Source of the DNA: an uncultured Methanosarcinales archaeon
GTDB lineage: Archaea; Nanobdellota; Nanobdellia; Woesearchaeales; CAZYIM01
Length of the DNA: 40,588 nt
Assembly: GCA_964647565.1 (NCBI GenBank)
Contig: CAZYIM010000027.1
Coordinates: 1-40,588 of the forward strand
Direction of reading: 5' to 3'
Every line of letters starts with the position of its first letter. Position 1 is the first letter of the stretch. A program made the translations under genes and the position numbers. The notes beneath the pieces are model-generated. The model saw only the letters and a program-made list of their open reading frames with translations. It was not told where the DNA came from and did no database searches. This document shows, in pieces, positions 1,912 through 37,683 of the stretch.

Positions 1912-3495
1912 TCAACCAACAACATCATGCATCCGATACCGATTGTTCTCCAGCTTGTACTTCCGTAGTTTGCCTATCATTCCGGTTCTTGCCTTAGTTT
2001 TCTCTGGTTCGTTCCAGGGATAGATTATCCCGTGGATCACTTTCCCATTCATCTGTATAATTTTTCTCGGAAGGTTCGTAATCTTAATCCCATACTTGCC
2101 TGGGTTTATCTGCATGTCAGACCCTTTGACAACCTGCAGTTTCCCAAAGCCTATCCTATCGATAAAGTCTTGATTGTTTTCTAAGAAATCAAGTGTTTCC
2201 TGCAATTCACTTTCACTTTCAGTAGGCAGGTTGTATATTATCAAAAGATAGTTCTTTATACCTTGTAAATATGCTCGTTTCAACACATCCTTCATAACTT
2301 CCACTTTAGTGCCTTTCTTAATTAAATCAAGCAGTCTTTGATTAAAACACTCTGCTCCCCAGTATATTGCCTTGCAGCCTGCTTTGGCCATCTTCATTAA
2401 AATCTCATCTGTAAACGTCTCAATTGGCTTTGAATAGCAGGAGAACTTAATATCCATGTTTTCAACAACCAACCTTTCACTCAATTTCTCAAGCAGCGGA
2501 GGCACCATATATTCATCTACAAATGAAAAGCTTTCAATCCCATATTTCCTCTTATAATATTTGAGCTCTTCAATAAACCTATCCAGGGATTTCCTGCGAA
2601 AGGCCATATATGAACGGTGATGTGTGCAAAACGCACATTTCCTCCAATGGCAGCCTCTTGTTGAGAGCACTGCTAAGATCGGCACAGGATTAAGATACTG
2701 TTTAAAATCAAAATCATCAAGATCTGGAAAAGGAAGATTATCAATATCAGGAACACAATTCGTCTCATTAAATACTAACTCCTTTTGTTTCATATATGCT
2801 AAATTGGGCACAGAGTCTATATTTTTACCTTGCTCAATTGCATCCATCAGTCCAAGCAGGGCAAGCTCTCCTTCACCAACTATCAGATAATCAACAAAGT
2901 CAAGAGTCTCTAAAATCTCCTTATGATCATAATGTGTCATTTGTGCCCCGCCCAAAACAATAGTCTTGTTATGGTGTTTTTTAAGATATTTAGCAAGGGC
3001 GAATGTATAATGGAACTGCAATGAAGAGAACATGGAGAATCCAACTATATCACAATCAACTTCCAAGATCCGTTTGATATCATTTTTTAAGAATAATTCA
3101 ACAATCTCTTCTTCATACATATCCTTCTCAATATATTTGATGAATGCATGGCTGACTATCTTGATCATTGACATAGACAGTTCATTTACCCTGATATTGT
3201 ATTCATTGATAAGCTTAGGATTTTCTTTTACAAGGGTCATACTCTTGAAGTATCTTTTAGCATCCTTAACAAATTCAGGATTTTCCAGCTTGGGATCATC
3301 AGGGTAATCCGCAGGAATCTTCTTCTTGATCAGATCTATATCCATTTCAGGAAGCCGATTATAAAAATCAATATTCAGATCTATACACCTGACCTTGTAA
3401 TCAGAACTCTTTTCAACATAGGCCTTTAAGTACGCTATACCTATTGGCATATAGGTGGGCACACCTATAGGTGAAAATACCAGACATGCTTTCAT
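1912..3495 (-). CDS. B12-binding-domain / radical SAM domain protein (class-B-like radical SAM enzyme).
   Basis: 527 aa. N-terminal Rossmann-like B12-type region (KACLVFSP...) followed by Cys triad RGCHWRKCAFCTHH (spacing C-x4-C-x2-C) and a radical-SAM core. Confidence 0.7.
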   Translation of the reverse strand: MKACLVFSPIGVPTYMPIGIAYLKAYVEKSSDYKVRCIDLNIDFYNRLPEMDIDLIKKKIPADYPDDPKLENPEFVKDAKRYFKSMTLVKENPKLINEYNIRVNELSMSMIKIVSHAFIKYIEKDMYEEEIVELFLKNDIKRILEVDCDIVGFSMFSSLQFHYTFALAKYLKKHHNKTIVLGGAQMTHYDHKEILETLDFVDYLIVGEGELALLGLMDAIEQGKNIDSVPNLAYMKQKELVFNETNCVPDIDNLPFPDLDDFDFKQYLNPVPILAVLSTRGCHWRKCAFCTHHRSYMAFRRKSLDRFIEELKYYKRKYGIESFSFVDEYMVPPLLEKLSERLVVENMDIKFSCYSKPIETFTDEILMKMAKAGCKAIYWGAECFNQRLLDLIKKGTKVEVMKDVLKRAYLQGIKNYLLIIYNLPTESESELQETLDFLENNQDFIDRIGFGKLQVVKGSDMQINPGKYGIKITNLPRKIIQMNGKVIHGIIYPWNEPEKTKARTGMIGKLRKYKLENNRYRMHDVVG

Positions 3496-3610
3496 TTCAT
3501 CCCCGATTCAAGAAGATTTATACAAGCTTAAAAAGTTTATTGTTTAACATAAGTTATTAAAAATAGAAAAATTAATAAACTAGTAAGTCATACCTTACTT
3601 TGGTGATATC

Positions 3611-3877
3611 ATGGAATTTGCTATAGCTAAAGTAAGTACAAAAGGTCAGATAGTAATCCCTAGTTCTTTAAGAGGGGACATACATAGCGGAGACGAATTC
3701 TTAATCGTCAAGGATAATGGAAGAATGATCCTGAAAAACATGAAAAAAGTAGCTAAGGATTTAAAAGAAGATCTTGCCTTTGCAGAGAGGATTGAAAAAG
3801 CCTGGAAAGAACACGATAAAGGTAAGTTTATTACCAAATCCAAGAATGATTTCTTAAAGGAATTAAGAACATGTTAA
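3611..3877 (+). CDS. AbrB/MazE/SpoVT-family antitoxin (swapped-hairpin DNA-binding domain).
   Basis: N-terminal KVSTKGQIVIPSSLR motif typical of AbrB-type looped-hinge domain. Overlaps the downstream toxin gene by 7 nt. Confidence 0.65.
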   Translation: MEFAIAKVSTKGQIVIPSSLRGDIHSGDEFLIVKDNGRMILKNMKKVAKDLKEDLAFAERIEKAWKEHDKGKFITKSKNDFLKELRTC

Positions 3878-4119
3878 CCATTGATTATCACCCTAATTTT
3901 CTAAAGATAATTAGTAAGATTAAAGACTTGACAACCAAAGAGAAAATCAAGAAACAAGTCGAAAAAATAATAGAAGATCCAGAAATTGGCAAACCAATGA
4001 AATATGATCGCAAGGGAACAAGGGAGCTGTATGTTGCACCTTATAGGTTAGCCTATGTATTTATTGCCTCAGAAAATAAAATAATCTTTCTAGACATCTA
4101 TCATAAAGATAATCAGTAG
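3871..4119 (+). CDS. RelE/ParE-family type II toxin.
   Basis: 82 aa. GKPMKYDRKGTRELYVAPYRLAYVF...IIFLDIYHK matches the RelE/ParE core. Operonic with the upstream antitoxin. Confidence 0.7.
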   Translation: MLTIDYHPNFLKIISKIKDLTTKEKIKKQVEKIIEDPEIGKPMKYDRKGTRELYVAPYRLAYVFIASENKIIFLDIYHKDNQ

Positions 4120-4190
4120 TGCCTGTTTTTAGCCTATATTTATAAATAAATTCAACTTCCCTATTCTATTATAGTAACAGTTGATGAAAT

Positions 4191-7452: not shown

Positions 7453-8105
7453 ATCTTGTACGCCAGTGTAGAAGGACTTATTCTTCCAACACAAGGACCG
7501 TCTTTTACTTCAAAGCCAGCCCTGACCAAATTGATCCTTATCGGTGTTGCGCAAGAATAGGTTGATAGCACACCTCCAGTCTTGACGACCTTTGAGATCT
7601 GCTTCATGAACTCCTCACTCCACATATGCGGAGTCCTTGAATATGAGAAAGGATCTAAAAACACAACATCAAACTCGCCGTCAAGCATATCCACTGTCTT
7701 CTTTGCATCACCAAGCAGCAATTTGATAGTCACATTGTTCCACTTGGCAGAGAGATCACCCTTTGCCATGCCTTTTATCAATGGATAGCTCCAGAATTTT
7801 GGATTCACTTCCTTTATCTTCTCAATGATATGAGGATCCAGCTCAAGGGCCATGACATCTATCTCACACTCTTTATTAGTTTTCAGAGCCAGATCAAGGG
7901 CTGCAGCAGTGTTATAGCCAATGCCAAAACATATATCCAGAATCCTGATCTTGCCTTTCTTTGCAAGCTTTTTGATTTCAGTCGGCTCTGCATATTTCTT
8001 TATGGCCTCTTCCTCTGCTCCGGTCAATGAATGATAGCACTCTTTTACCTTTTCGTTGAAATAAGTGTACGAGCCGTCCTTGGTCTTGGTCTTCTTGAGC
8101 TTCAT
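7449..8105 (-). CDS. MnmC-like (DUF752) SAM-dependent methyltransferase domain protein.
   Basis: 218 aa. ILDICFGIGYN and DVVFLDPFSYSRTPHMWSEEF...GGVLSTYSCATPIRINLVRAGFEV align with the methyltransferase domain of MnmC (WFLDGFAPAKNPDMWTQ...[22 protein letters not shown]). Confidence 0.75.
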   Translation of the reverse strand: MKLKKTKTKDGSYTYFNEKVKECYHSLTGAEEEAIKKYAEPTEIKKLAKKGKIRILDICFGIGYNTAAALDLALKTNKECEIDVMALELDPHIIEKIKEVNPKFWSYPLIKGMAKGDLSAKWNNVTIKLLLGDAKKTVDMLDGEFDVVFLDPFSYSRTPHMWSEEFMKQISKVVKTGGVLSTYSCATPIRINLVRAGFEVKDGPCVGRISPSTLAYKI

Positions 8106-12404: not shown

Positions 12405-12650
12405 TCACTTATACACGTTTTTTCTATGATCAAAGCAATTGACTATTATCTTGTTGTTTTCTAATCTATAAATGATCCTAAAGGGAGGGATTCTTGCACT
12501 ACGATGACCTTTGAGGCCATATTTCAAAGGTTTTCCTGATTCTGGGAGTTGTCCTAATTTTTTAATATGCTTAATCAGGTTTAATCTCATGGATTTGTCT
12601 TTAATTTTCTTAAAATCTTTTTTAAACTCTTCAGAAAATATGATCTGCAT
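12405..12650 (-). CDS. RelE/ParE-family type II toxin.
   Basis: 81 aa. GKPLKYGLKGHRSARIPPFRIIYRLENNKIIV is a RelE/ParE core. Directly downstream of the antitoxin gene. Confidence 0.7.
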   Translation of the reverse strand: MQIIFSEEFKKDFKKIKDKSMRLNLIKHIKKLGQLPESGKPLKYGLKGHRSARIPPFRIIYRLENNKIIVNCFDHRKNVYK

Positions 12651-12653
12651 TTT

Positions 12654-12938
12654 TTAGTTTATTAATAAGTCATCAATCTCTTTGTCGTTCATTTTTGTGT
12701 CAGCTTTGATGAATCTGCCTTTTTCGATATCTTCTTCGCTCTTTCTTATTTGGTCTATTAATAGCAGATCTTCTTTTAGAGATTCCTTTTTTATCTGTTT
12801 TAACAATATGTTTCCATCTTGGTTGAACACTAAAAATTGTGTTGATGGTTTTATGTCCGCATCTTTCCTGACTTCTGAAGGGATTACAACCTGCCCATTC
12901 TGGGATATTTTTGTTATTGAAACTTCCATTTGTATCAC
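12654..12938 (-). CDS. AbrB/SpoVT-like antitoxin.
   Basis: 94 aa. ISQNGQVVIPSEVRK AbrB-type N-terminus plus acidic C-terminal tail. 3-nt gap to the toxin. Confidence 0.6.
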   Translation of the reverse strand: MIQMEVSITKISQNGQVVIPSEVRKDADIKPSTQFLVFNQDGNILLKQIKKESLKEDLLLIDQIRKSEEDIEKGRFIKADTKMNDKEIDDLLIN

Positions 12939-18635: not shown

Positions 18636-19712
18636 ATGACGAAATATGAAGTTGGTCCGATCAGGCCGCCAAGCGAAGCAAGTAGTCTAATAGTTCGTGT
18701 GACAAGGAACTGTCCCTGGAATCGCTGCACTTTTTGTCCTGTCTATAAAGGCCAGGACTATGAACAAAGAGCTGTCTCTGAAGTTCTTGAGGACATTAAA
18801 AAAAACGCTCCAAGAGTACAAGCAAGTAAGCGTCCATATAAAAGTGTCTTTCTTCAGGATGCAGATCCAATGGGATTGCCAACAGCCGACTTGATACCAA
18901 TTCTAATTGAACTAAGAAAGAATTATCCTACAATCTCCAAAATAACAACCTATGCGCGAACTGCTTCTCTTATAAAAAAATCGCCTGATGAGATCAGAGA
19001 ATTGTATGAAGCTGGTCTGACAAGGATTCATCGGGGTCTTGAGACTGGATACAATCCTTTATTACGATTTGTGAAAAAAGGGACTACAGCAAAATTACAG
19101 ATAAAAGGGGGTAGGCGAGTAAAAGAGGCAGGCATGGAATTAAGCGAATATGTCATGCCGGGCTTAGCTGGAGATTTAATTTTCGATAAACAACCTGCAT
19201 GGAGAAATCATGCTATAGAGACTGCTAATGTATTAAATGAGATCAATCCAGATTTCATTCGATTAAGGACATTGTCCATTTATCCGGGAGATGTCTCGTG
19301 GAATAGGCATAAACAAGAAGGAGTCTCAAGATTGACAGATCAGGATATAGCAAAAGAGATTTATCTTTTTATTGAAAACCTGAATGGAATAACCAGTACA
19401 ATAAAAAGCGATCATAGACTAAACCTATTATGGGAATTAAGAGGTAAACTGCCTAGAGACAAAAATAAGATGCTGGCATTGATAGACCAATACCTTTCTA
19501 TGAAACCAATAGACCAATATGCTTTTAGAATTGGTGCTTTATTAGGAGGGCCAGCCACCTTAGATAGATTTGCAGCTGCTAATGGCGTTCAGCTAATCAC
19601 AGACGATACTAAACCTGCATCAGGAAAAAAAACAGAAGGCATTGAAACTGAAGAAAATGAATATGCCTCCTTAGAGAATCTTGTGCAGGCCCTTCTTACA
19701 ATGGTTGTATAA
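18636..19712 (+). CDS. Radical SAM domain protein.
   Basis: 358 aa. N-terminal VRVTRNCPWNRCTFCPVYKG Cys triad, the same C-x-W-x-[RK]-C-x-F-C pattern (C-x4-C-x2-C) as 1912..3495. Confidence 0.65.
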   Translation: MTKYEVGPIRPPSEASSLIVRVTRNCPWNRCTFCPVYKGQDYEQRAVSEVLEDIKKNAPRVQASKRPYKSVFLQDADPMGLPTADLIPILIELRKNYPTISKITTYARTASLIKKSPDEIRELYEAGLTRIHRGLETGYNPLLRFVKKGTTAKLQIKGGRRVKEAGMELSEYVMPGLAGDLIFDKQPAWRNHAIETANVLNEINPDFIRLRTLSIYPGDVSWNRHKQEGVSRLTDQDIAKEIYLFIENLNGITSTIKSDHRLNLLWELRGKLPRDKNKMLALIDQYLSMKPIDQYAFRIGALLGGPATLDRFAAANGVQLITDDTKPASGKKTEGIETEENEYASLENLVQALLTMVV

Positions 19713-19721
19713 TAGATTCTT

Positions 19722-19768
19722 TTAACCTGCTGAATGTCCTCCCCAGCCTGCTGCGCTCCTATAGCATC
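19722..19768. repeat. 47-bp perfect direct repeat, copy 1 (orphan copy of the 3' end of gene 20392..21540).
   Basis: TTAACCTGCTGAATGTCCTCCCCAGCCTGCTGCGCTCCTATAGCATC is identical to 20392-20438. Confidence 0.9.
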
Positions 19769-19839
19769 TGCTGCTTATGTAATTTTCAATATAACTGATG
19801 TTTTATTTGGAATTAAACGATGTATTACTTAGAGCATAT

Positions 19840-20088
19840 CTATACTTCCCGATAATCATGTTTCCTAAAGAGAATGTCTGCAATAATTATTTGATTTGCT
19901 TTAAGCTCATAGATTATTCGGTATTTGTTTACATGAATTGACCAATATGGATTTGCTTTAAGTTTCTTTCCGAGTGGAGCTCTTAATTCCAGCTTCTGAA
20001 TTTTCTTCCATATTTGTTTCTTTAGTATTTTATCTTCAATTTTAGAAAAAGATTTGTCAAATTGTTCACTAAAAATCAACGTATACAT
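19840..20088 (-). CDS. RelE/ParE-family type II toxin.
   Basis: 82 aa. YWSIHVNKYRIIYELKANQIIIADILFRKH is a RelE/ParE core. 1-nt gap from the upstream antitoxin. Confidence 0.65.
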   Translation of the reverse strand: MYTLIFSEQFDKSFSKIEDKILKKQIWKKIQKLELRAPLGKKLKANPYWSIHVNKYRIIYELKANQIIIADILFRKHDYREV

Positions 20089-20089
20089 T

Positions 20090-20275
20090 TTAACTTAATT
20101 TAGGATGTCTCCTCAGGAACTCAGATTTTGTTAGAAAAGGACCTTTCATTGCCTTTTTTATCTTTCTAAGCTCGTCTTTAGTTAATTCATCAGTCTCAAT
20201 GTAACGATCAAATAAGTCTGCCTTATTTTTAAGCAGATCATATTCTTCTTTTGGTATAATCATAGTTTCAGACAT
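20090..20275 (-). CDS. Putative antitoxin (small helical protein).
   Basis: 61-aa ORF immediately upstream of, and co-oriented with, the RelE gene. Confidence 0.5.
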   Translation of the reverse strand: MSETMIIPKEEYDLLKNKADLFDRYIETDELTKDELRKIKKAMKGPFLTKSEFLRRHPKLS

Positions 20276-20391
20276 TCTTTTTACCTATGTGTATTTGTAA
20301 GGGCTTTATCTATTTAAATTTATCGGGCAGGCGTTCTTGATAAAATATAGATTGGGAGCAAGTTTAAAGATGTTTAAAAAAAATCTAAAAA

Positions 20392-20438
20392 TTAACCTGC
20401 TGAATGTCCTCCCCAGCCTGCTGCGCTCCTATAGCATC
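20392..20438. repeat. 47-bp direct repeat, copy 2 (true 3' end of gene 20392..21540).
   Basis: Identical to 19722-19768. Contains the stop codon (TTA on the plus strand) and the last 15 codons. Confidence 0.9.
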
Positions 20439-21540
20439 CATCTCCATCATAAAACCCGGAGCCTGATGAACGGTATGAGCTGGAAGATGACTTTTTCTCT
20501 TTGGTTGGATCGCCCAATAACTGGGATCTGTTCAGGCCGATCCTTAGCAGTCTTTTATCATATATGCTCACTTTCTCATCTTCAAGCCTGTCATTTATGT
20601 AATTCTCAAATCCTGCTATGGTTCCTGTCTCAAATGCTGGCTTTAATAGTTTCACAGTAATCCTTCCAAGGAGATTTCTGTTTGGGATCGTAATCTTGTC
20701 CAGATGCTCTGCATCCATCCTCTTGTATTCACCAGCCAGGTCTATCTTATGCTTTTTACCATCAAAAGAGCTGTGGCTCACCACAACCAGGTCATCAATG
20801 GATTTGGCATCCAGTTCCCTGATGTGCAGTCTGTCAGGATCTATTATCTGATTAAGGGCTGATGAACCATACTCGCATTTAGCTGGATCTTTAAATTTTC
20901 GTATATAACAAAATCCTGAAGAATAGCTTACATCCAATTTTCTGACTGGGCCCTCTGAGCAGAGTTGCACTGTCTGGAGATCATACTCCCTTATGAACCT
21001 TGGCTCCTGGTTGCGGACAGGAAGTATCTTGATGTTAAAGGTGCAGTTATAGGTCTTGCTATCCCTGCCATCACTAATGATCCTGTCTGTAGAATCTCTA
21101 TAAGACTCATACCAGCTCTTTTTAGATTGATAGTCATCTGATGCCCAATAGTCTTTCTTCTTTTCCATCTTATGCAGTTGCTTGGATAGAATATCCCTTT
21201 TTTTCTCATATTTCAAAAACAATTCTGTCTCCTCTCTGGTTAGGTTGGAGTATTTCATCCTTTCATCCTTCCAGATCTTGGCAGATAAAGCAAACCTATA
21301 ATCCTCTGTCTGGCCCATCATTGCCTCAAGAAGGATATGTGTGCCATATCCAGGGAACTTATAGTTCAGCTTTTCAAGCAGATAGACATTGTGATTGTGA
21401 TATGCACCTTTCTTGGCAGTATTAATGGCTGAACTGATGAAATTATCATGGTCAAACAATTTGTTCCTAAAATAGTCAAATTTTCCTTTTTTCATTTTTT
21501 CTACCTCTGAAAGTTGTTTTCTTTTGGACTGCCTCAGCAA
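20392..21540 (-). CDS. Hypothetical protein with Ser/Gly-rich C-terminal tail (…SSSSSYRSSGSGFYDGDGCYRSAAGWGGHSAG).
   Basis: 382-aa ORF. No recognised domain. Confidence 0.55.
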   Translation of the reverse strand: MLRQSKRKQLSEVEKMKKGKFDYFRNKLFDHDNFISSAINTAKKGAYHNHNVYLLEKLNYKFPGYGTHILLEAMMGQTEDYRFALSAKIWKDERMKYSNLTREETELFLKYEKKRDILSKQLHKMEKKKDYWASDDYQSKKSWYESYRDSTDRIISDGRDSKTYNCTFNIKILPVRNQEPRFIREYDLQTVQLCSEGPVRKLDVSYSSGFCYIRKFKDPAKCEYGSSALNQIIDPDRLHIRELDAKSIDDLVVVSHSSFDGKKHKIDLAGEYKRMDAEHLDKITIPNRNLLGRITVKLLKPAFETGTIAGFENYINDRLEDEKVSIYDKRLLRIGLNRSQLLGDPTKEKKSSSSSYRSSGSGFYDGDGCYRSAAGWGGHSAG

Positions 21541-24006: not shown

Positions 24007-24369
24007 TTATGCTGCTGAAGCAATTAAGGGACTCTTAAAATTAGCATTGGCAAATGCTGGTAATTTTTCCTTGATCACTTCATTATTATGCTTAAATATC
24101 AGAGTAACAATAAAATAATTTCGATAATTTATTACATCCAACTCAACCTCAGTTATACCTTCCAACATATCTTTTGAAATTTTATCATTAACAGTATGTA
24201 AGAATTCAAATGCATCAATTAACTCCAAATTAACTAATTGTTTATTTTTGTCTATATCAATAACTAGATCTTCAGATACTTCAATACTTTCTTTAACATT
24301 TTTTGCAGACCTATAAATAGTTAAAACATCCCCATCTGGATCATATGAAGCACTAAATTTCTCAGTCAT
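24007..24369 (-). CDS. DUF2283-like small protein (antitoxin-like partner of DUF4258 toxins).
   Basis: 120 aa. YDPDGDVLTIY...IEVSEDLVIDIDKNKQLVNLELIDA matches the DUF2283 pattern (YDxExDxLYI...GIEIL). Confidence 0.4.
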   Translation of the reverse strand: MTEKFSASYDPDGDVLTIYRSAKNVKESIEVSEDLVIDIDKNKQLVNLELIDAFEFLHTVNDKISKDMLEGITEVELDVINYRNYFIVTLIFKHNNEVIKEKLPAFANANFKSPLIASAA

Positions 24370-24391
24370 AATAATCTCTAAATACTCCGGG

Positions 24392-24655
24392 TTATTTAAA
24401 TCTTTTCCTATATTTAGTAATTGTCGTTCTTCCTAGTGGAAAAACAGTAATAACTTTAATATTTGAATTAAAAGTTAAAATAAAACATCTGCCTTTAGAT
24501 CCTGAGAAAATGTGATAACACCTATATCTTGTTTCTTTTTTACCTTGAAAATCTACTTCTTGTTTCGCTACAAAAACCAAATCTGTAGAATCGTGAATTT
24601 CAGTTTTCAAATCTTGGATAGTACTTTTATTCCTTTTTTCTAACCAACTTATCAA
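24392..24655 (-). CDS. Small hypothetical protein (possible DUF4258-like toxin partner).
   Basis: 87-aa ORF immediately upstream of the DUF2283-like gene. C-terminal ...IKVITVFP resembles DUF4258. Confidence 0.35.
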   Translation of the reverse strand: MISWLEKRNKSTIQDLKTEIHDSTDLVFVAKQEVDFQGKKETRYRCYHIFSGSKGRCFILTFNSNIKVITVFPLGRTTITKYRKRFK

Positions 24656-24850
24656 TTTAATCTTAGTAAATTTAATATCGGATAATTGATATTTTTTTAA
24701 TTTATCCTTAATAAATTTTGACCAATCATCTATGATGAAACATAGAGCAGATACTCAAGTATATAAACATTCCCCAATAAACCTTGTTCTTTTTACTAGG
24801 GTAGATAGAACAAAACTCCCCCTTTATATAAAATACAAAAGAAGTCTTAG

Positions 24851-24905
24851 GTGCTGATCAGATCTTTTTTCTATAATGAAATGCGTATTCATCAAAGTCA
24901 TAGCT
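24851..24905. repeat. 55-bp direct repeat (51 bp perfect plus GTG with 1 mismatch), copy A (orphan copy of the 3' end of GNAT gene 26744..27181).
   Basis: TGATCAGATCTTTTTTCTATAATGAAATGCGTATTCATCAAAGTCATAGCT is identical to 26741-26791. On the minus strand it encodes SYDFDEYAFHYRKKI-stop. Confidence 0.9.
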
Positions 24906-26736
24906 TACATTCCTGGACATGTTTGCACATAAACAAAACAATGTCTCGTTTAATGGGTGCTAAGTTCAATAAGATTTGGAGTCCTAAAAAGATAAAGGGG
25001 TCTGGAAATTTTAGATAAATTCTTAAATAGATAGTTCTCTTTTGTTCATAACATGAATCCAATATTATCAGAAGTAAAATACGTTGTTGAAAATTCAGAA
25101 CACGTCAAAATTAATGTTGATGCCATAAAAACAGTTGTAGATGGTTTTTCCCCTGAAGATAAAGTTCCTTGGACTGACATTCTTCCATTTAAACCACAGA
25201 ATCTAACTAAAAAAGAAAGAATTGCTTTTAATTTTGTATTTAATGCAATTAATTTTTCATATTGGGGAAATCCAAAATGGACAATCAAATACCAAGATAA
25301 AGAATTAGATGGTTCTTGGGCAATGATTGGCTCAATTCATCGTGCGATTGAAGAAGGTTATGATATTTTGAATCCAAAATATCTGATAAATATTAGTGAG
25401 GAAAATTTTGATCATATTTTTCGAGGAAACGTAAAAGTTCCACTTTTTAATGAGAGATTAGAAATCCTTCGAAAACTTGGAAAAATAATATGTTCTGATT
25501 TTAATGATGATTTTGAAAATGTTTTAATAGAATCTAATTATGAATCTGAGAAACTGCTCAATATAATTACTTCTAAATTTGATTTTTTTAATGACTATTC
25601 CCTGTACAAAAATAAAAAAGTGCATTTTCATAAAAGAGCCCAATTACTAATTGGAGATATTTATGAATTATTGCTGGAATTCAAGCAAGAAAGCATAAAA
25701 AACATAAATTTTTTGACTGCTTTTGCTGATTACAAAATACCTCAGATTCTAAGAAAACTTAATGTCTTGGAATATTCTAAAGAGTTAGAAAATTTAATTG
25801 GTAATAAAATAGAGATGGAATCTGGAAATCCGATGGAAGTAGAAATAAGAGCAAATATGATATGGGCAATTGAATTAATTAAAGAAGAAATAAACAAAAA
25901 ATATCCTGAAATTAATTCAATGAATATAGATCACTATTTGTGGATTCTTTCACAAGATAAAAAGAAAGATGATAAACCATATCACCTAACAAGAACTATT
26001 AATTATTAAAAAATTGCAATTTTACTCAGAATTTCTGGCGCAGAGTTTATAAATTAAGCTGAATTCCCCTTGTTTATGGGAATTGATTTTTCAGAATTGC
26101 CTTGGGAAGATCTTGAAGTTGAAGATCATGATTGGCCTGGAGGAAAGTCCATTAAATGGTTGTCTGGCAGAGTAACTATTAATGAATATGGTTATGATAT
26201 AACGGATCGTGTTGAATTATATATACTTCCTGATGGAATTGAATACTTAGCACAACATCCTCAAGCTCTTAATAGTTGGTTAAATGAGGATTTTTTTTGT
26301 CAGAAGAAAAATATCGAGGTCCAACAGCTCTAAGAGGCAGGTATGTTCAACAACTAACTCTAGATGGAGAGGTATTTGCACAAAAAACTTATGGAAATAA
26401 TGATGTCGAAAGCGCATTTAAACAAGCAGGTTTCTATCGAAAATTAGATGAACAACTAGACCCCAGTAATGTAAGAATTCCCAAATTATTCTTTGCTCTG
26501 GAACGGAGATTATTAATGGAACCCTTGTTTGGTTTTCCCAATATTGAGGATCTAAGAATAAAAAGTGGTTCTGATCAAGATATCCTGGCCTTTTTTGACA
26601 AACAAGAAAAACCAGACAAACCTTTAGTTGAAGAAGATGGAATCTACGTACTAAAAGGCAATCCTATTGAAAAATCAGAGTTTATATTGACTGATCCGAG
26701 AGTTAATAACGCTAAAAATTCTTCCAGCATACTAAA
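24906..26736. mobile_element. Very AT-rich (about 27% GC) inserted island bounded by the 55-bp direct repeats. Carries Qng1-like gene plus a frameshifted gene. No integrase inside.
   Basis: Bounded by the direct repeats. Strong compositional contrast with flanks (about 45-50% GC at 33.3 kb). Confidence 0.45.
25053..26009 (+). CDS. Qng1/DUF2419-family queuosine salvage protein (queuosine 5'-phosphate N-glycosylase/hydrolase-like).
   Basis: 318 aa. Blocks AFNFVFNAINFSYW, HKRAQLLIGDIY, AFADYKIPQIL, MEVEIRANMIWAIELIK and IDHYLW align to conserved blocks of Qng1 (…NFSFW…YKRAQILVADTW…MFADYRLPQVL…QEVEIRGCSLWCVELIR…LDYYLW). Confidence 0.75.
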   Translation: MNPILSEVKYVVENSEHVKINVDAIKTVVDGFSPEDKVPWTDILPFKPQNLTKKERIAFNFVFNAINFSYWGNPKWTIKYQDKELDGSWAMIGSIHRAIEEGYDILNPKYLINISEENFDHIFRGNVKVPLFNERLEILRKLGKIICSDFNDDFENVLIESNYESEKLLNIITSKFDFFNDYSLYKNKKVHFHKRAQLLIGDIYELLLEFKQESIKNINFLTAFADYKIPQILRKLNVLEYSKELENLIGNKIEMESGNPMEVEIRANMIWAIELIKEEINKKYPEINSMNIDHYLWILSQDKKKDDKPYHLTRTINY

Positions 26737-26743
26737 GTGTTGA
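26070..26743 (+). pseudogene. Hypothetical gene split into two ORFs (26070..26333 and 26297..26743) at a T8 homopolymer (26291-26298). Frameshifted, slippage-prone, or a sequencing error.
   Basis: Two overlapping ORFs in different frames switch exactly at TTTTTTTT. The second ORF has no ATG (TTG only). Confidence 0.35.
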
Positions 26744-26791
26744 TCAGATCTTTTTTCTATAATGAAATGCGTATTCATCAAAGTCATAGCT
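26737..26791. repeat. 55-bp direct repeat, copy B (true 3' end of the GNAT gene).
   Basis: Matches 24851-24905. Confidence 0.9.
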
Positions 26792-34680: not shown

Positions 34681-36201
34681 TTACCAGCCGCCGACAGAGC
34701 CGCCTCCGCCTCCGCCGCCCCATCCTCCGATAGAGCCGCCTCCGCCTCCACCACCAAAACCGATGTTGGAGCCGCCCATACCAGGGCTACTGAAGATCGT
34801 GGTTGAGGTACTTGTATTCCAGGATGAGCTGGAGCTAGATGTTGACTTGAAGTACTGTGCATTATCGATCTTGTTCCACAGCTGTCTCTTGGTGATCCTG
34901 TCTGCCATGTACCTATCCATCTCTCTTTCGATGTCCAGGTCAGATTCAAAACGGGACCTGCTTGCATCATAGTCATAATCCTCAAAGTCATCAAGCACGT
35001 CCTTCAATCCTGATATATTGCTTGACAGTTCTCTTCGTTTTTCGACCAGTGTCTTGGATTGTTGCCTGTAATCGCCGATGGTCTCATTGATATCGTAAAT
35101 CTTTTCAACAAGCATGTCGTCCTTTCGAGTAGGAGTTTGCTCTGCAATCTCCCTTAACTTTTCAAGTTCGTAACTTCCAAGGACCTTTTTTAATGTTTCC
35201 AACGCCCTTCCAAAATAAGCGCCTTTTGTATCCTGAAGCTTCTCCCTCTGGTCTGCATATTCTCTGTAGAGATTATCTTCATGGGTGATCTTGGCAATCA
35301 CATCGTTTCGCTTGTTGGTCAGGTCATCCATCTCAACTAGGATATTAGTAAGGCCGTGCTTGTCAGATACCTCTTTCTCGTATTCATTCAGCTTTGTGAT
35401 AAAGTTGTCTCTGTATTCCTTTCTATTATTGGTCGCTTCCTCAAGAGTCTTAGGAATATTGATCAGACGCTCATAGCTCTTCTTGGCCTGATCAAAGGTT
35501 ATCTTGTTGCCGTCAGCATCTTTCAAACCTACTTTATTGGCCAGCCATTCATCGCCTTTCTTTAGAAGTCCTTTTCCTTTGTATTCAGCTGATCCAAATT
35601 GCCTCTTGAAATAAAGGTATTTGAAGACCTTGTTGTTCTCAAAGACTTTTTTCTTGGCTTCTACTTTCTCTTTCCACTTATCCAGCCTTTGGACACTCCG
35701 ATCATAGCTCTGCTCTGCCTTTTCAGCATCAAAGACCATGTTGACATAAGTTTTGTTCTTGTCCAGCTCTTCAACAACTGCATTTTGTACTTGCTCCCTG
35801 AGCTTGGATTTTTCATGCAGGACCGTTGACTGCTCTTTTAGCTTGAGCTGCAGATTCTTTTTTGTCTGGTGCGAACTTAGCATGTCTTTCTCGATCTTCT
35901 GCCTGGCTGCCTGTTTCTCCAGATAAAGATTTCGGACTTGCTCTTCTGCCCTCTCAAGCTCTTCCACTTTCTGATCGATATCATCGATACCTTCTGCAGT
36001 CAGCTCTTCAAGATAGACATTGGCTAAATTCCTATAGGTCTCTACCCTGTCTGTCTGCAACCTTCCGATCTTGTTCTCGAATGAGGAGATATCTCTTTTG
36101 AGTCTTGATTCCTTCCTTTCTTCAGCATCAATCCTGCTGTCGATTTCGTCGTAAATATCTGATCCGTAGTAGCTCATTTTATTTCCTCCAGTTGACATCA
36201 C
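34681..36201 (-). CDS. Long coiled-coil protein with C-terminal poly-Gly/Trp tail (GGGGGGGSIGGWGGGGGGGSVGGW).
   Basis: 506 aa. About 430 aa of heptad-like charged helical sequence, then S-rich linker and G-rich tail. Likely true start MSYYGSD (36177), leaving a 1-nt gap to the upstream gene. Confidence 0.6.
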   Translation of the reverse strand: MMSTGGNKMSYYGSDIYDEIDSRIDAEERKESRLKRDISSFENKIGRLQTDRVETYRNLANVYLEELTAEGIDDIDQKVEELERAEEQVRNLYLEKQAARQKIEKDMLSSHQTKKNLQLKLKEQSTVLHEKSKLREQVQNAVVEELDKNKTYVNMVFDAEKAEQSYDRSVQRLDKWKEKVEAKKKVFENNKVFKYLYFKRQFGSAEYKGKGLLKKGDEWLANKVGLKDADGNKITFDQAKKSYERLINIPKTLEEATNNRKEYRDNFITKLNEYEKEVSDKHGLTNILVEMDDLTNKRNDVIAKITHEDNLYREYADQREKLQDTKGAYFGRALETLKKVLGSYELEKLREIAEQTPTRKDDMLVEKIYDINETIGDYRQQSKTLVEKRRELSSNISGLKDVLDDFEDYDYDASRSRFESDLDIEREMDRYMADRITKRQLWNKIDNAQYFKSTSSSSSSWNTSTSTTIFSSPGMGGSNIGFGGGGGGGSIGGWGGGGGGGSVGGW

Positions 36202-36621: not shown

Positions 36622-37683
36622 TTAACTCGGTTGCTTTCCCTGGTTAAGATGAAGCTTGCCATTTGCATATAGCTGCTCATTACTGTTATTTGCTGCAGCG
36701 ACTTTAGATAGATTCTTGATATTTTTGTATACATTGTCAAGTTGAGGACCCAAGTCAATTATATCCTCAATATTGTCGCCTAGTCCCTGGAGATTTCTTA
36801 AGGCGTTTTGCCCCTTGTCCAGGTTGCCTCTTTCAACATTCATGACTCCAGTCCTATAGGTTGATTCTGCCTTGTTAGCCAGAACATTAGGACCGTCAAG
36901 GTTCCTGATCTCCTCAATGGTTGTATCAAGGCTTCTCTTCACCTGCTTGAGGAATGCTCTTTCTTTGACAATGCCATCAGCAGTCATAAGATATGCATTG
37001 ACGCCATCGAGAGTCCTGACAATAGGTCCTAGTTCATCCATCACAGCTTCGTAGTTGTGCTTGGTGACCTTGTCATCTGCCTCTCCCCTGTTGTCGCAAT
37101 ACATGGATAAGAAATTGTCTGTGGTCTTAAGAGCGTTCTCTGAGTTGATCAATAGAGTGCTTAGATTCTCTGCATTAGGCTGGCTACGGTCTCTTGCGTC
37201 TGGCGCGAGCCTGTCAATTGTATCGAGCAGGTGCTGCCTGCTTTCATAGGCAATCTCCACCCTTTCCTCAACAGCCTTTTCAGCCCTTGCAATCTTTCTT
37301 GCGCCTGCTGTCAGCATGCTGATGCCAGCTGTTAGGCCAACAGCACTTATCACTGCGATTGGCACCACTCTTGTCCATAAATACTTGGTCCTGTCTATAA
37401 ACCAGTTGACTTTCTTGTTTTCAGGCATATAGATATCAAAATCCCTTGAGAACTGACTTTCGAGCCCTGCTTGATCTTCTGTATCAAGATATGTTTCTGC
37501 TATTTTTCGCTCATCAATCATCTCATTAAGGTTTTGTGGAATCATAGTGGTTGTGGACTTTTTTGATCCGTCTTTCCCAGAGTTAGTTTCATCCATCATT
37601 TTAAGTTGGGAAAGGCAGAAATGATTATAAATCTTTCGTAAAATTGCCACTTGAAAATAGAAACATATGGACGTGATAAACAT
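36622..37683 (-). CDS. Membrane-anchored helical protein (single TM VVPIAVISAVGLTAGISMLTAGA, then about 240-aa helical domain).
   Basis: 353-aa ORF. Probable true start MMDETNSG or MIPQNL. First gene of the operon. Confidence 0.55.
   Translation of the reverse strand: MFITSICFYFQVAILRKIYNHFCLSQLKMMDETNSGKDGSKKSTTTMIPQNLNEMIDERKIAETYLDTEDQAGLESQFSRDFDIYMPENKKVNWFIDRTKYLWTRVVPIAVISAVGLTAGISMLTAGARKIARAEKAVEERVEIAYESRQHLLDTIDRLAPDARDRSQPNAENLSTLLINSENALKTTDNFLSMYCDNRGEADDKVTKHNYEAVMDELGPIVRTLDGVNAYLMTADGIVKERAFLKQVKRSLDTTIEEIRNLDGPNVLANKAESTYRTGVMNVERGNLDKGQNALRNLQGLGDNIEDIIDLGPQLDNVYKNIKNLSKVAAANNSNEQLYANGKLHLNQGKQPS

Follow-up and report, generated by a model that had tools for sequence, protein, structure and literature searches.

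We examined a 40,588-nt stretch of DNA from an uncultured Methanosarcinales archaeon (GTDB lineage Archaea; Nanobdellota; Nanobdellia; Woesearchaeales; CAZYIM01), namely contig CAZYIM010000027.1 of assembly GCA_964647565.1, read over its whole length on the forward strand and called the window throughout. Near its middle, a toxin–antitoxin (TA) gene pair lies between two convergent genes and is bracketed by perfect 47-bp direct repeats. To the left is a radical-SAM gene (18636-19712, plus strand; Pfam PF04055, E = 1.3e-14). To the right is a gene for a 382-aa protein (20392-21540, minus strand), which the insertion considered here leaves intact and whose guanine-plus-cytosine (GC) content of 0.41 is like that of the rest of the contig. 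This protein is an ORFan: among 5.8 billion proteins it falls only into its own cluster, and no Pfam, PHROG, or NCBIfam family matches it. The 623 bp between the repeats hold a toxin open reading frame (ORF), an antitoxin ORF, and 187 nt of noncoding DNA—and nothing else. The toxin gene (19840-20088, minus strand) encodes an 82-aa member of the RelE/ParE superfamily (Pfam ParE_toxin PF05016, E = 2.3e-8; 34.9 bits against a cut-off of 23). The 61-aa antitoxin is encoded upstream of it (20090-20275, minus strand), with 1 nt between the antitoxin stop and the toxin start. An initial annotation, made from the letters of the sequence, had named a RelE-like toxin and its antitoxin as the sole genes of the 623-bp segment, and ORF and Pfam analysis agree. 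The noncoding DNA consists of a 71-nt 3' end, running from the toxin stop codon to the first repeat copy (19769-19839, minus strand), and a 116-nt 5' end with a TATA-like box and a T-run (20276-20391, minus strand). The 3' end has neither similarity to the flank of the second repeat copy nor a terminal inverted repeat against the other end of the cassette.

The repeat, TTAACCTGCTGAATGTCCTCCCCAGCCTGCTGCGCTCCTATAGCATC, occurs exactly twice in the window, at 19722-19768 (copy 1) and 20392-20438 (copy 2), with 0 mismatches, just as the annotation had it. No third copy turned up in the window even down to 27/47 matches, and 0 were expected from 100 shuffles. When the window was shuffled 30 times, the longest direct repeat within 8 kb measured 13-17 nt; in the real window two repeats exceed this background, the 47-mer and a 51-mer that belongs to a second insert described further on. 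Copy 2, on the minus strand, supplies the 382-aa gene with its functional 3' end (the stop, 14 codons, and 2 nt). Copy 1, which starts 9 nt past the stop of the convergent radical-SAM gene, is an orphan copy of that end: a tblastn search with the 382-aa protein finds 15 identical residues there, and the similarity goes no further. Aligned with 60 nt of flank, the copies begin and end their identity abruptly at both edges of the 47-mer.

Which part of the locus is old, and which arrived later? GC content is 0.55 in the repeat, 0.29 in the insert, 0.384 in the window, and 0.39-0.42 in the flanking genes, and the Ser/Gly-rich C-terminal tail of the 382-aa protein continues unbroken over the repeat boundary (...SSGSGFYDGDG/CYRSAAGWGGHSAG). 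Because of this host-gene composition and the seamless protein tail, the 47 bp are native to the 382-aa gene, and it is the AT-rich TA segment that looks foreign and is, judging from the sequence, the probable newcomer. The insertion footprint that had been read from this locus stands, with a repeat derived from the target around an AT-rich, foreign-looking insert. Before the insertion, the stops of the radical-SAM and 382-aa genes would have lain 9 nt apart.

The cassette looks equipped to run on its own. A TATA-like box, GATAAATTTAAATAG, precedes the antitoxin ATG by 35-49 nt (20310-20324), and a nearly identical box, AATAAATTTAAATAC, occupies the same place in a related cassette (locus L015 of the survey below). 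The box is probably a promoter. The T-run (~20376-20391), which now directly follows the stop of the 382-aa gene, is a candidate terminator. Against NCBIfam the toxin gives weak matches to YafQ and RelE_StbE, and a profile of its family finds YoeB as its sole match in the PDB, also weak (E = 0.0075), which suggests an mRNA interferase of the RelE/YoeB type and not a gyrase poison. The 61-aa antitoxin has no match in Pfam, PHROG, NCBIfam, or PDB. Its family is small, with 27 clusters at 50% identity among 1.8 billion proteins (homologs include P0218-P0244), and almost every related locus has a homolog immediately upstream of the toxin. Taken together, the 623-bp segment has the makings of a self-contained type II TA addiction module with its own TATA-type promoter. 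Toxin homologs fall into 82 clusters at 55-100% identity. The few hits with a named source, and most of the 21 reference-genome loci, come from DPANN archaea (Woesearchaeota, Nanoarchaeia/Nanoarchaeota, Micrarchaeota, and Aenigmatarchaeota); other host labels are a few metagenome-assembled genomes (MAGs) labeled as Methanosarcinales or Methanocellales, one Candidatus Methanoperedens, and one Saccharibacteria contig. Together with the promoter type, this distribution would fit an archaeal, possibly DPANN, source organism. Viral contigs yielded no member of the toxin family.

A few smaller sequence features touch the cassette and its target. Within the TA genes, a 26-nt inverted repeat, 81% complementary, links the 3' part of the toxin gene (19866-19891) with the surroundings of the antitoxin start codon (20258-20283); it could reflect long-range pairing within the TA mRNA, or chance. 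A 33-nt stretch at 19699-19731 spans the radical-SAM stop and the 9-nt spacer, reaches 10 nt into the 47-mer, and has an 82% match at 36915-36947, inside the ORF at 36622-37683. By a rough estimate ~0.15 such matches are expected, so that this one is near chance level. Finally, two unrelated proteins of the window carry C-terminal Gly/Ser/Trp-rich tails, the 382-aa protein, whose tail (within 20392-20500) reads ...AAGWGGHSAG, and a 506-aa protein, whose tail (within 34681-34760) has a GGGGGS/GGW repeat; the tails may be a shared C-terminal signal.

Could the repeat have been created during assembly? A duplicated k-mer overlap or a collapsed strain bubble was a natural suspicion for a perfect repeat of a length near common assembler k-mer sizes in a sequence of metagenomic source, and the initial annotation had itself raised an artefact as grounds for dismissing the insertion. 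Both copies, however, are present not only in the NCBI contig of the window but also in L001 (JGI 3300009374), which matches the window at 100% identity along 13 kb, and in L003 (ENA ERZ23498639, a scaffold from sample SAMN10231914), which come from different samples and pipelines. A further contig, L002 (JGI 3300009008), is identical to the window and ends within the cassette, past copy 1, so that four separately assembled contigs agree with the arrangement. The analogous repeats at other loci are, moreover, imperfect and of many lengths. Because the independent assemblies L001 and L003 carry both copies, an assembly artefact is very unlikely.

We looked for an empty version of the locus by exact look-ups of the 382-aa protein, of the radical-SAM protein and a 100%-identical ENA variant of it, and of a GNAT protein encoded further along the window and its variant. 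Neither an empty site nor a diverged ortholog of the locus emerged from the collections; every contig found of this population is in the filled state. The closest homologs of the radical-SAM protein (59% identity) are not syntenic with the window, the genome, viral, and metagenome contig collections do not contain the 34-nt core of the 47-mer, and no pseudogene remnants were found beyond the repeats.

Is the arrangement peculiar to the window, or does it accompany the cassette family wherever it occurs? We collected 21 loci from reference genomes and 30 from metagenomes, plus those found by exact protein look-up (loci and contigs carry an L number here), and clustered them at 95% DNA identity into 46 lineages, of which the 41 with at least 150 nt of flank on both sides were used. 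Each lineage received a repeat score from aligning the 500 nt left of the antitoxin with the 500 nt right of the toxin, and 1248 random 440-bp pseudo-cassettes placed in the same loci served as controls. Direct repeats that hug the cassette were found in 11 of 41 lineages (27%), with scores of 23-95, and the remaining 30 score at most 13, a bimodal distribution. The scores are 95 in L042, 77 in L034, 61 in L046, 47 in the window, 33 in L036, 32 in L068, 30 in L062, 29 in L059, 25 in L067, 24 in L047, and 23 in L040. Of the 1248 controls, only 12 (1%) attain a score of at least 23 (Fisher p = 8e-12), and 7 a score of at least 29 (Fisher p = 3e-9). Flanking direct repeats are a recurrent property of this cassette family and not a peculiarity of the window, and the earlier suggestion that the TA cassette behaves as a mobile unit gains support from the same comparison.

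The 11 loci share a layout rather than a sequence. Their repeats are 23-107 bp long and mutually unrelated, each copying its local target, and the spacing between the two copies is 543-730 bp. All 11 inserts consist of the TA pair only, with 0.53-0.62 kb between the repeats. The cassette ends vary, with 44-135 nt from the repeat to the antitoxin start and 0-182 nt from the toxin stop to the repeat. Identity between copies ranges from ~85% to 100%, a spread expected for events of different ages. One further order of events can be weighed at this point, namely that the TA pair was there first and the 47 bp were copied later through slippage or unequal recombination. The window locus, taken alone, offers no empty or ancestral state with which to contradict it. 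We nevertheless give this sequence of events little credence, as it leaves unexplained both the foreign composition between the repeats in the two events of the window and the repeats that lie tight against the cassette, at different targets, in 11 independent lineages.

What do the repeats copy? In L068, whose geometry is the same as in the window and whose repeat likewise has two sharp edges, the last 11 codons and stop of an SRP54 gene (Pfam E = 4.9e-67) are duplicated. In L042 the duplication covers the start codon and ~45 codons of a TruD gene (E = 1.6e-105), and the cassette lies within the 5' part of the gene. SRP54 and TruD are both core housekeeping genes, which lends indirect support to the target origin of the repeated segments. 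L040 has 23 identical bases in the 3' end of an amino-acid-kinase-family gene, the last 10 codons of which have diverged between the copies; in L059 the repeat takes in the beginning of a Lys-rich gene and, in diverged form, the final codons of its upstream neighbor; in L067 the last four codons of a small gene are replaced by the cassette; and the repeat of L046 is intergenic.

Two loci hold arrays. In L034 (467-2207 of Nanoarchaeia MAG contig DATDYQ010000062.1; L070 belongs to the same population), a two-ORF cassette and a TA cassette are bracketed by a promoter-plus-first-codons segment present in three copies. Over 89 nt the outer two copies do not differ at all; the middle one departs from them at 4 positions and has a longer stretch (~180 nt) in common with the first. 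In L036 (1148-3714 of Nanoarchaeota MAG contig JBBSWF010000028.1), a tRNA-Gly(CCC) gene is followed by four copies of its 3' end together with ~35 nt of downstream sequence, and the three intervals hold a nucleotidyltransferase (MNT-like) pair, a pair of the window's TA family, and HicAB. The partner ORF of the nucleotidyltransferase has no family hit. The whole resembles an integron array, and there is no recognizable integrase on the 3.8-kb contig, where a 310-aa ORF was scanned.

A separate observation concerns L015 (GCA_964571335.1), where repeats lie beside all three tRNA genes (75-600, 3492-4180, and 7739-7950). The final 21 nt of tRNA-Gly(GCC) are found again 615 bp downstream, a 47-aa ORF alone lying between, several 55-nt repeats follow tRNA-Val, and a 25-nt repeat adjoins tRNA-Glu. 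These may be scars of repeated small insertions.

Does anything near these cassettes look capable of moving them? Recombinase scans against Pfam, PHROGs, and NCBIfam covered window ORFs of at least 110 aa and, in L034, L040, L042, L046, and L068, ORFs of at least 170 aa. Within that range the window contains no Phage_integrase, resolvase, or transposase family, in line with the earlier remark that no integrase is present, and the five other loci contain no recombinase family; their neighbors include core genes, such as those for ribosomal protein S4, an RNA polymerase subunit, and Trm1. Terminal inverted repeats score at shuffle level in all 7 cassettes tested, and no conserved end motif is common to the cassettes except the promoter box. 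Three other candidates were discarded. An SSV-type split integrase is out, as the 382-aa gene carries no integrase signature and no ORF enters copy 1. A retro-copy of the TA mRNA is out as well, given that the insert holds its own promoter upstream of the transcription start. A DDE transposon, or an element resembling a miniature inverted-repeat transposable element, does not fit a family with no terminal inverted repeats and with duplications of 23-107 bp rather than short fixed ones.

The same data bear on whether the repeats could be working parts of a known repeat-based system, either the template and variable repeats of a diversity-generating retroelement or a pair of integron attC sites. 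A noncoding copy of a gene 3' end close to the gene is retroelement geometry, and integrons, which often carry TA cassettes, are reported to occur in Archaea (bioRxiv 10.1101/2022.02.06.479319). Like integron cassettes, the units described here are discrete, bear promoters, measure ~0.5-1 kb, and can form arrays separated by repeats. Yet the scanned window ORFs include no reverse transcriptase family, and with 0 mismatches in 47 nt there are no adenine-specific differences between the copies. Neither IntI nor attI was found in the 40.6-kb window, and DNA folding of both strands of both 47-mer copies yields no attC-like fold, neither strand folding better than shuffled sequence (z -0.88 to -0.01; the repeat of the second window event gives z +1.4 and +1.7). 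In contrast to integron cassettes, moreover, the cassettes lack conserved core sites, and the repeats, unrelated from locus to locus, copy host genes. A functional repeat system is effectively refuted.

Site-specific integration deserves more thought, as it was the interpretation favored initially. Here the 47-mers would be the attachment (att) sites attL and attR of a tyrosine or serine integrase, or, in two variants, the cassette would be the relic of a larger element kept by its TA pair, akin to a cis-mobilizable element (CIME), or a miniature element mobilized by an integrase encoded elsewhere. The 47-mer begins within the gene and ends exactly on the stop codon, as if the element had supplied a replacement gene end. 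Its length lies within the 29-69 bp typical of archaeal att repeats, one copy of which restores the gene 3' end, and among thaumarchaeal integrated elements 14 of 68 occupy the 3'-distal part of a protein gene (PMC6563490). CIMEs, which are derivatives of bacterial integrative elements that have kept attL and attR and lost the integrase, are documented in bacteria (PMC5704250). The cassettes resemble archaeal att elements and CIMEs in their perfect direct repeats of ~30-70 bp, in that one copy is the 3' end of an intact gene, and in tandem accretion. The three TA cassettes of L036 are split by tRNA-Gly 3' ends, and in L015 a tRNA-Gly 3' end is repeated; such ends are classical integrase targets.

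Several observations stand against this account and its variants. No integrase was found in the window or near the repeat-flanked cassettes, within the ORFs scanned. Random decay of larger elements should leave varied remnants, whereas all 11 inserts are bare TA pairs, far smaller than the relics described; the window insert holds only 71 and 116 nt of noncoding DNA and no pseudogene remnants. Related cassettes are flanked by unrelated repeats at unrelated targets, including a population-specific ORFan, so that attP would have to be re-invented for each target. The repeat sequence is a property of each target and not of the element family, and the targets include gene 5' ends and intergenic DNA. 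Repeat length and cassette ends vary, neither conserved ends nor inverted repeats mark the cassettes, and none of the viral, genome, and metagenome collections contains the 47-mer. A single site-specific recombinase with a fixed att site does not fit such a pattern. On balance the attL/attR interpretation is not supported in the form first given, and we regard site-specific integration, all variants counted together, as rather unlikely.

A second insert, 5 kb from the TA cassette, provides a comparison within the window. Its repeat copy 1 (24846-24905) is an orphan copy of the 3' end of a GNAT gene, at which the last 15 residues of the GNAT protein match in a tblastn search. Copy 2 (26732-26791, minus strand) contains the stop and last 15 codons of that gene (26744-27181, minus strand) and also spans the last codons of a convergent gene for a 222-aa protein. 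The repeat comprises 51 exact nt (24855-24905 in copy 1) preceded by 12 nt with 9 matches (57/60 overall), and no third copy exists in the window. Between the copies lies an insert of ~1.8 kb (24906-26731, plus strand; GC 0.30) with a queuosine-salvage gene (25053-26009; Pfam Q_salvage, E = 1.6e-79) and the 222-aa gene (26070-26743, plus strand), which is frameshifted in the window, split into 87-aa and 148-aa ORFs, and intact (P0132) in L007 and L014, contigs of other samples. Neither a TA pair nor a recombinase was found in the insert. In the imperfect 12 nt, the last codons of the 222-aa gene, next to the insert, read LKC and stop, as against LRC and stop in the orphan copy, which implies that the similarity goes on, diverged, past the identical core on one side only.

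This one-sided divergence matters for a further explanation, that an enzyme acting in trans, either transposase-like or one that nicks the two strands 20-110 nt apart, opens the target, a linear cassette is ligated in, and the gaps are filled. Staggered cleavage would account for the perfect, sharp-edged repeats in the window and in L068, for their variable length, and for the identical outer copies in L034. A Mycoplasma transposon makes long, variable duplications (19-26 bp), and double-strand breakage has been proposed behind insertions of restriction-modification genes in bacteria (PMC2853133). The likeness to such insertion sequences lies in variable duplications longer than the usual 2-15 bp, but those elements encode a transposase with defined ends, and the cassettes here have neither: a transposase would find no terminal inverted repeats, no conserved ends, and no fixed end points. 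Fresh fill-in does not predict diverged one-sided similarity, and yet in four events (the second window event, L040, L042, and L059) the repeat runs on in diverged form on the side where the functional copy adjoins the cassette. Repeat edges also fall at start or stop codons (0 nt away in the window, 3 nt in the second event, 1-2 nt in L068, and at the start codon in L042), coincidences that this model yields only by chance or after selection, and a RelE/YoeB-type toxin is not expected to break DNA. We regard staggered cleavage, too, as rather unlikely.

How, then, might the cassette have entered? The reading we prefer, with a probability of roughly 0.55, is that it moves without a recombinase of its own, through recombination that duplicates a long stretch of the target. 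Because the cassette has no recombinase, no inverted ends, and no conserved site, its insertion would rely on recombination supplied by the cell, either homologous recombination of the RadA type or a microhomology-dependent process. Incoming DNA, circular or linear with both ends invading, would pair with two overlapping sites in the target, and the DNA between those sites would come to lie on either side of the insert. In the window, the cassette would have entered the chromosome between the two convergent genes and duplicated the last 47 bp of the 382-aa gene, which would have stayed whole, leaving the orphan 3'-end copy on the far side of the cassette. The ancestral junction of the empty site would read ...GGTTGTATAATAGATTCTTT + 47-mer + CATCTCCATCATAAAACC..., and the junction of an excised circle ...GTTTAAAAAAAATCTAAAAA + 47-mer + TGCTGCTTATGTAATTTTC....

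Once in place, the flanking repeats might serve as portable homology arms for transfer to the same site in related genomes, and recombination between them could also loop the cassette out. Cells that lost it in this way would be penalized by the stable toxin (post-segregational killing). Repeat-flanked inserts may be seen mainly with addiction modules because the repeats invite deletion and the loss of such a module is punished. Host-supplied recombination fits the survey better than the alternatives, in that it needs no element function or fixed ends and allows any repeat length. The diverged extensions suggest that the incoming DNA already held a homologous, diverged target end, and the pattern in L034 is the one expected from re-insertion of a repeat-containing block at a homologous site.

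A number of observations pull the other way. The insert of the second event has no recognizable addiction module, so that post-segregational retention is not the whole story. The repeat in the window has two sharp edges, one of them exactly at the stop codon, and these edges count against host recombination because classical integrase att sites that restore a gene 3' end look alike; the tRNA-Gly array of L036, in turn, looks like classical tandem site-specific integration. In the survey, 3 of the 11 cases (scores 23-25) fall in the tail of the controls, whose positions were random and not matched to gene boundaries. The recombinase negative covers ORFs of at least 110 or 170 aa, and several neighboring proteins have no family assignment. 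Neither an excised circle nor a second insertion site of the window cassette was found, and its insertion polarity and mobility are read from its anatomy and from the other lineages. Lastly, the mechanism seems to have been demonstrated nowhere, the restriction-modification precedent included.

That precedent is nevertheless instructive. In bacteria, restriction-modification systems show "insertion with long target duplication" (PMC2853133, Furuta, Abe and Kobayashi 2010; PMC3874152, Mruk and Kobayashi 2014). The inserts consist of the module alone, with no mobility genes, and are flanked by repeats of ~46 to >400 bp that often lie across start or stop codons; flanking repeats were enriched over control genes, the mechanism was attributed to DNA breakage, and the cases are bacterial only, no archaeal one having survived the screen (PMC2853133). 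Held against the criteria of the 2010 study, the window has repeats >30 bp, an addiction module only, and repeats that vary between events. The TA cassettes share with these insertions the lone addiction module, the lack of a mobility gene, the variable target-derived repeats, and the survival of the target gene, and the 47 bp seen here are close to the 46-bp repeats of the Haemophilus influenzae cases (PMC2853133). They differ in cargo, which here is a TA pair of the RelE/YoeB type and not a DNA-cleaving enzyme, and because of this difference self-inflicted double-strand breakage would not apply. They differ also in their named hosts, which are mostly DPANN archaea, and in forming some arrays of several cassettes that share one repeat (L034 and L036). 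The restriction-modification cases, furthermore, are defined by pairs of filled and empty sites, whereas the window locus is known in the filled state alone. In the literature searched, the coverage of which was incomplete, no account emerged of TA modules that had inserted in this way, or of DPANN cases. The footprint and the kind of selfish cargo are thus known ones; what appears to be new here is a toxin that is not expected to cut DNA, a host range dominated by DPANN, and arrays.

The window carries other modules of defense or addiction: an AbiTii protein (793-1701), a ParE/MazE pair (~12405-12929), a DUF2283 gene with an 87-aa partner (GC 0.27; 24007-24655), and a HEPN-like/nucleotidyltransferase pair (27257-28296). 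No flanking repeats, even decayed ones, were found at the ParE/MazE, DUF2283, and HEPN/nucleotidyltransferase pairs. Further along, a 790-aa protein (29918-32290, minus strand) matches the major vault protein domains MVP_shoulder (E = 3.9e-28), Vault_3, and Vault_4. Vault proteins are best known from eukaryotes, and a vault-like gene is unusual on a prokaryotic contig.

What would this mean for the movement of TA systems? Chromosomal TA loci have clearly spread horizontally and often occupy ordinary positions without a mobile element. The window alone is a tidy single scar. Together with ten independent parallels it provides a concrete, recurrent footprint, and its return in lineage after lineage is what makes it a claim on TA movement that can be tested. 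For annotation, orphan gene-end fragments beside TA pairs would be insertion scars and not pseudogenes of paralogs. More tentatively, the TA cassettes of DPANN archaea might form a distinct class of mobile element that lacks a recombinase, inserts at gene ends, tRNA ends, and intergenic sites via long target-derived duplications, then moves by means of these as homology arms or excision sites, and accretes into integron-like arrays such as L036 and L034—a possibility that we hold as less probable than not by a clear measure. If they do form such a class, the long target duplications known from bacterial restriction-modification systems would mark a general, domain-spanning route for addiction modules, independent of whether the module itself cleaves DNA. 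The restriction-modification footprint with an RNase-type toxin, and mostly in DPANN archaea, would argue for a route through host recombination instead of breakage by the module, and the inserts that come into view would then be those retained because losing the module is selected against.

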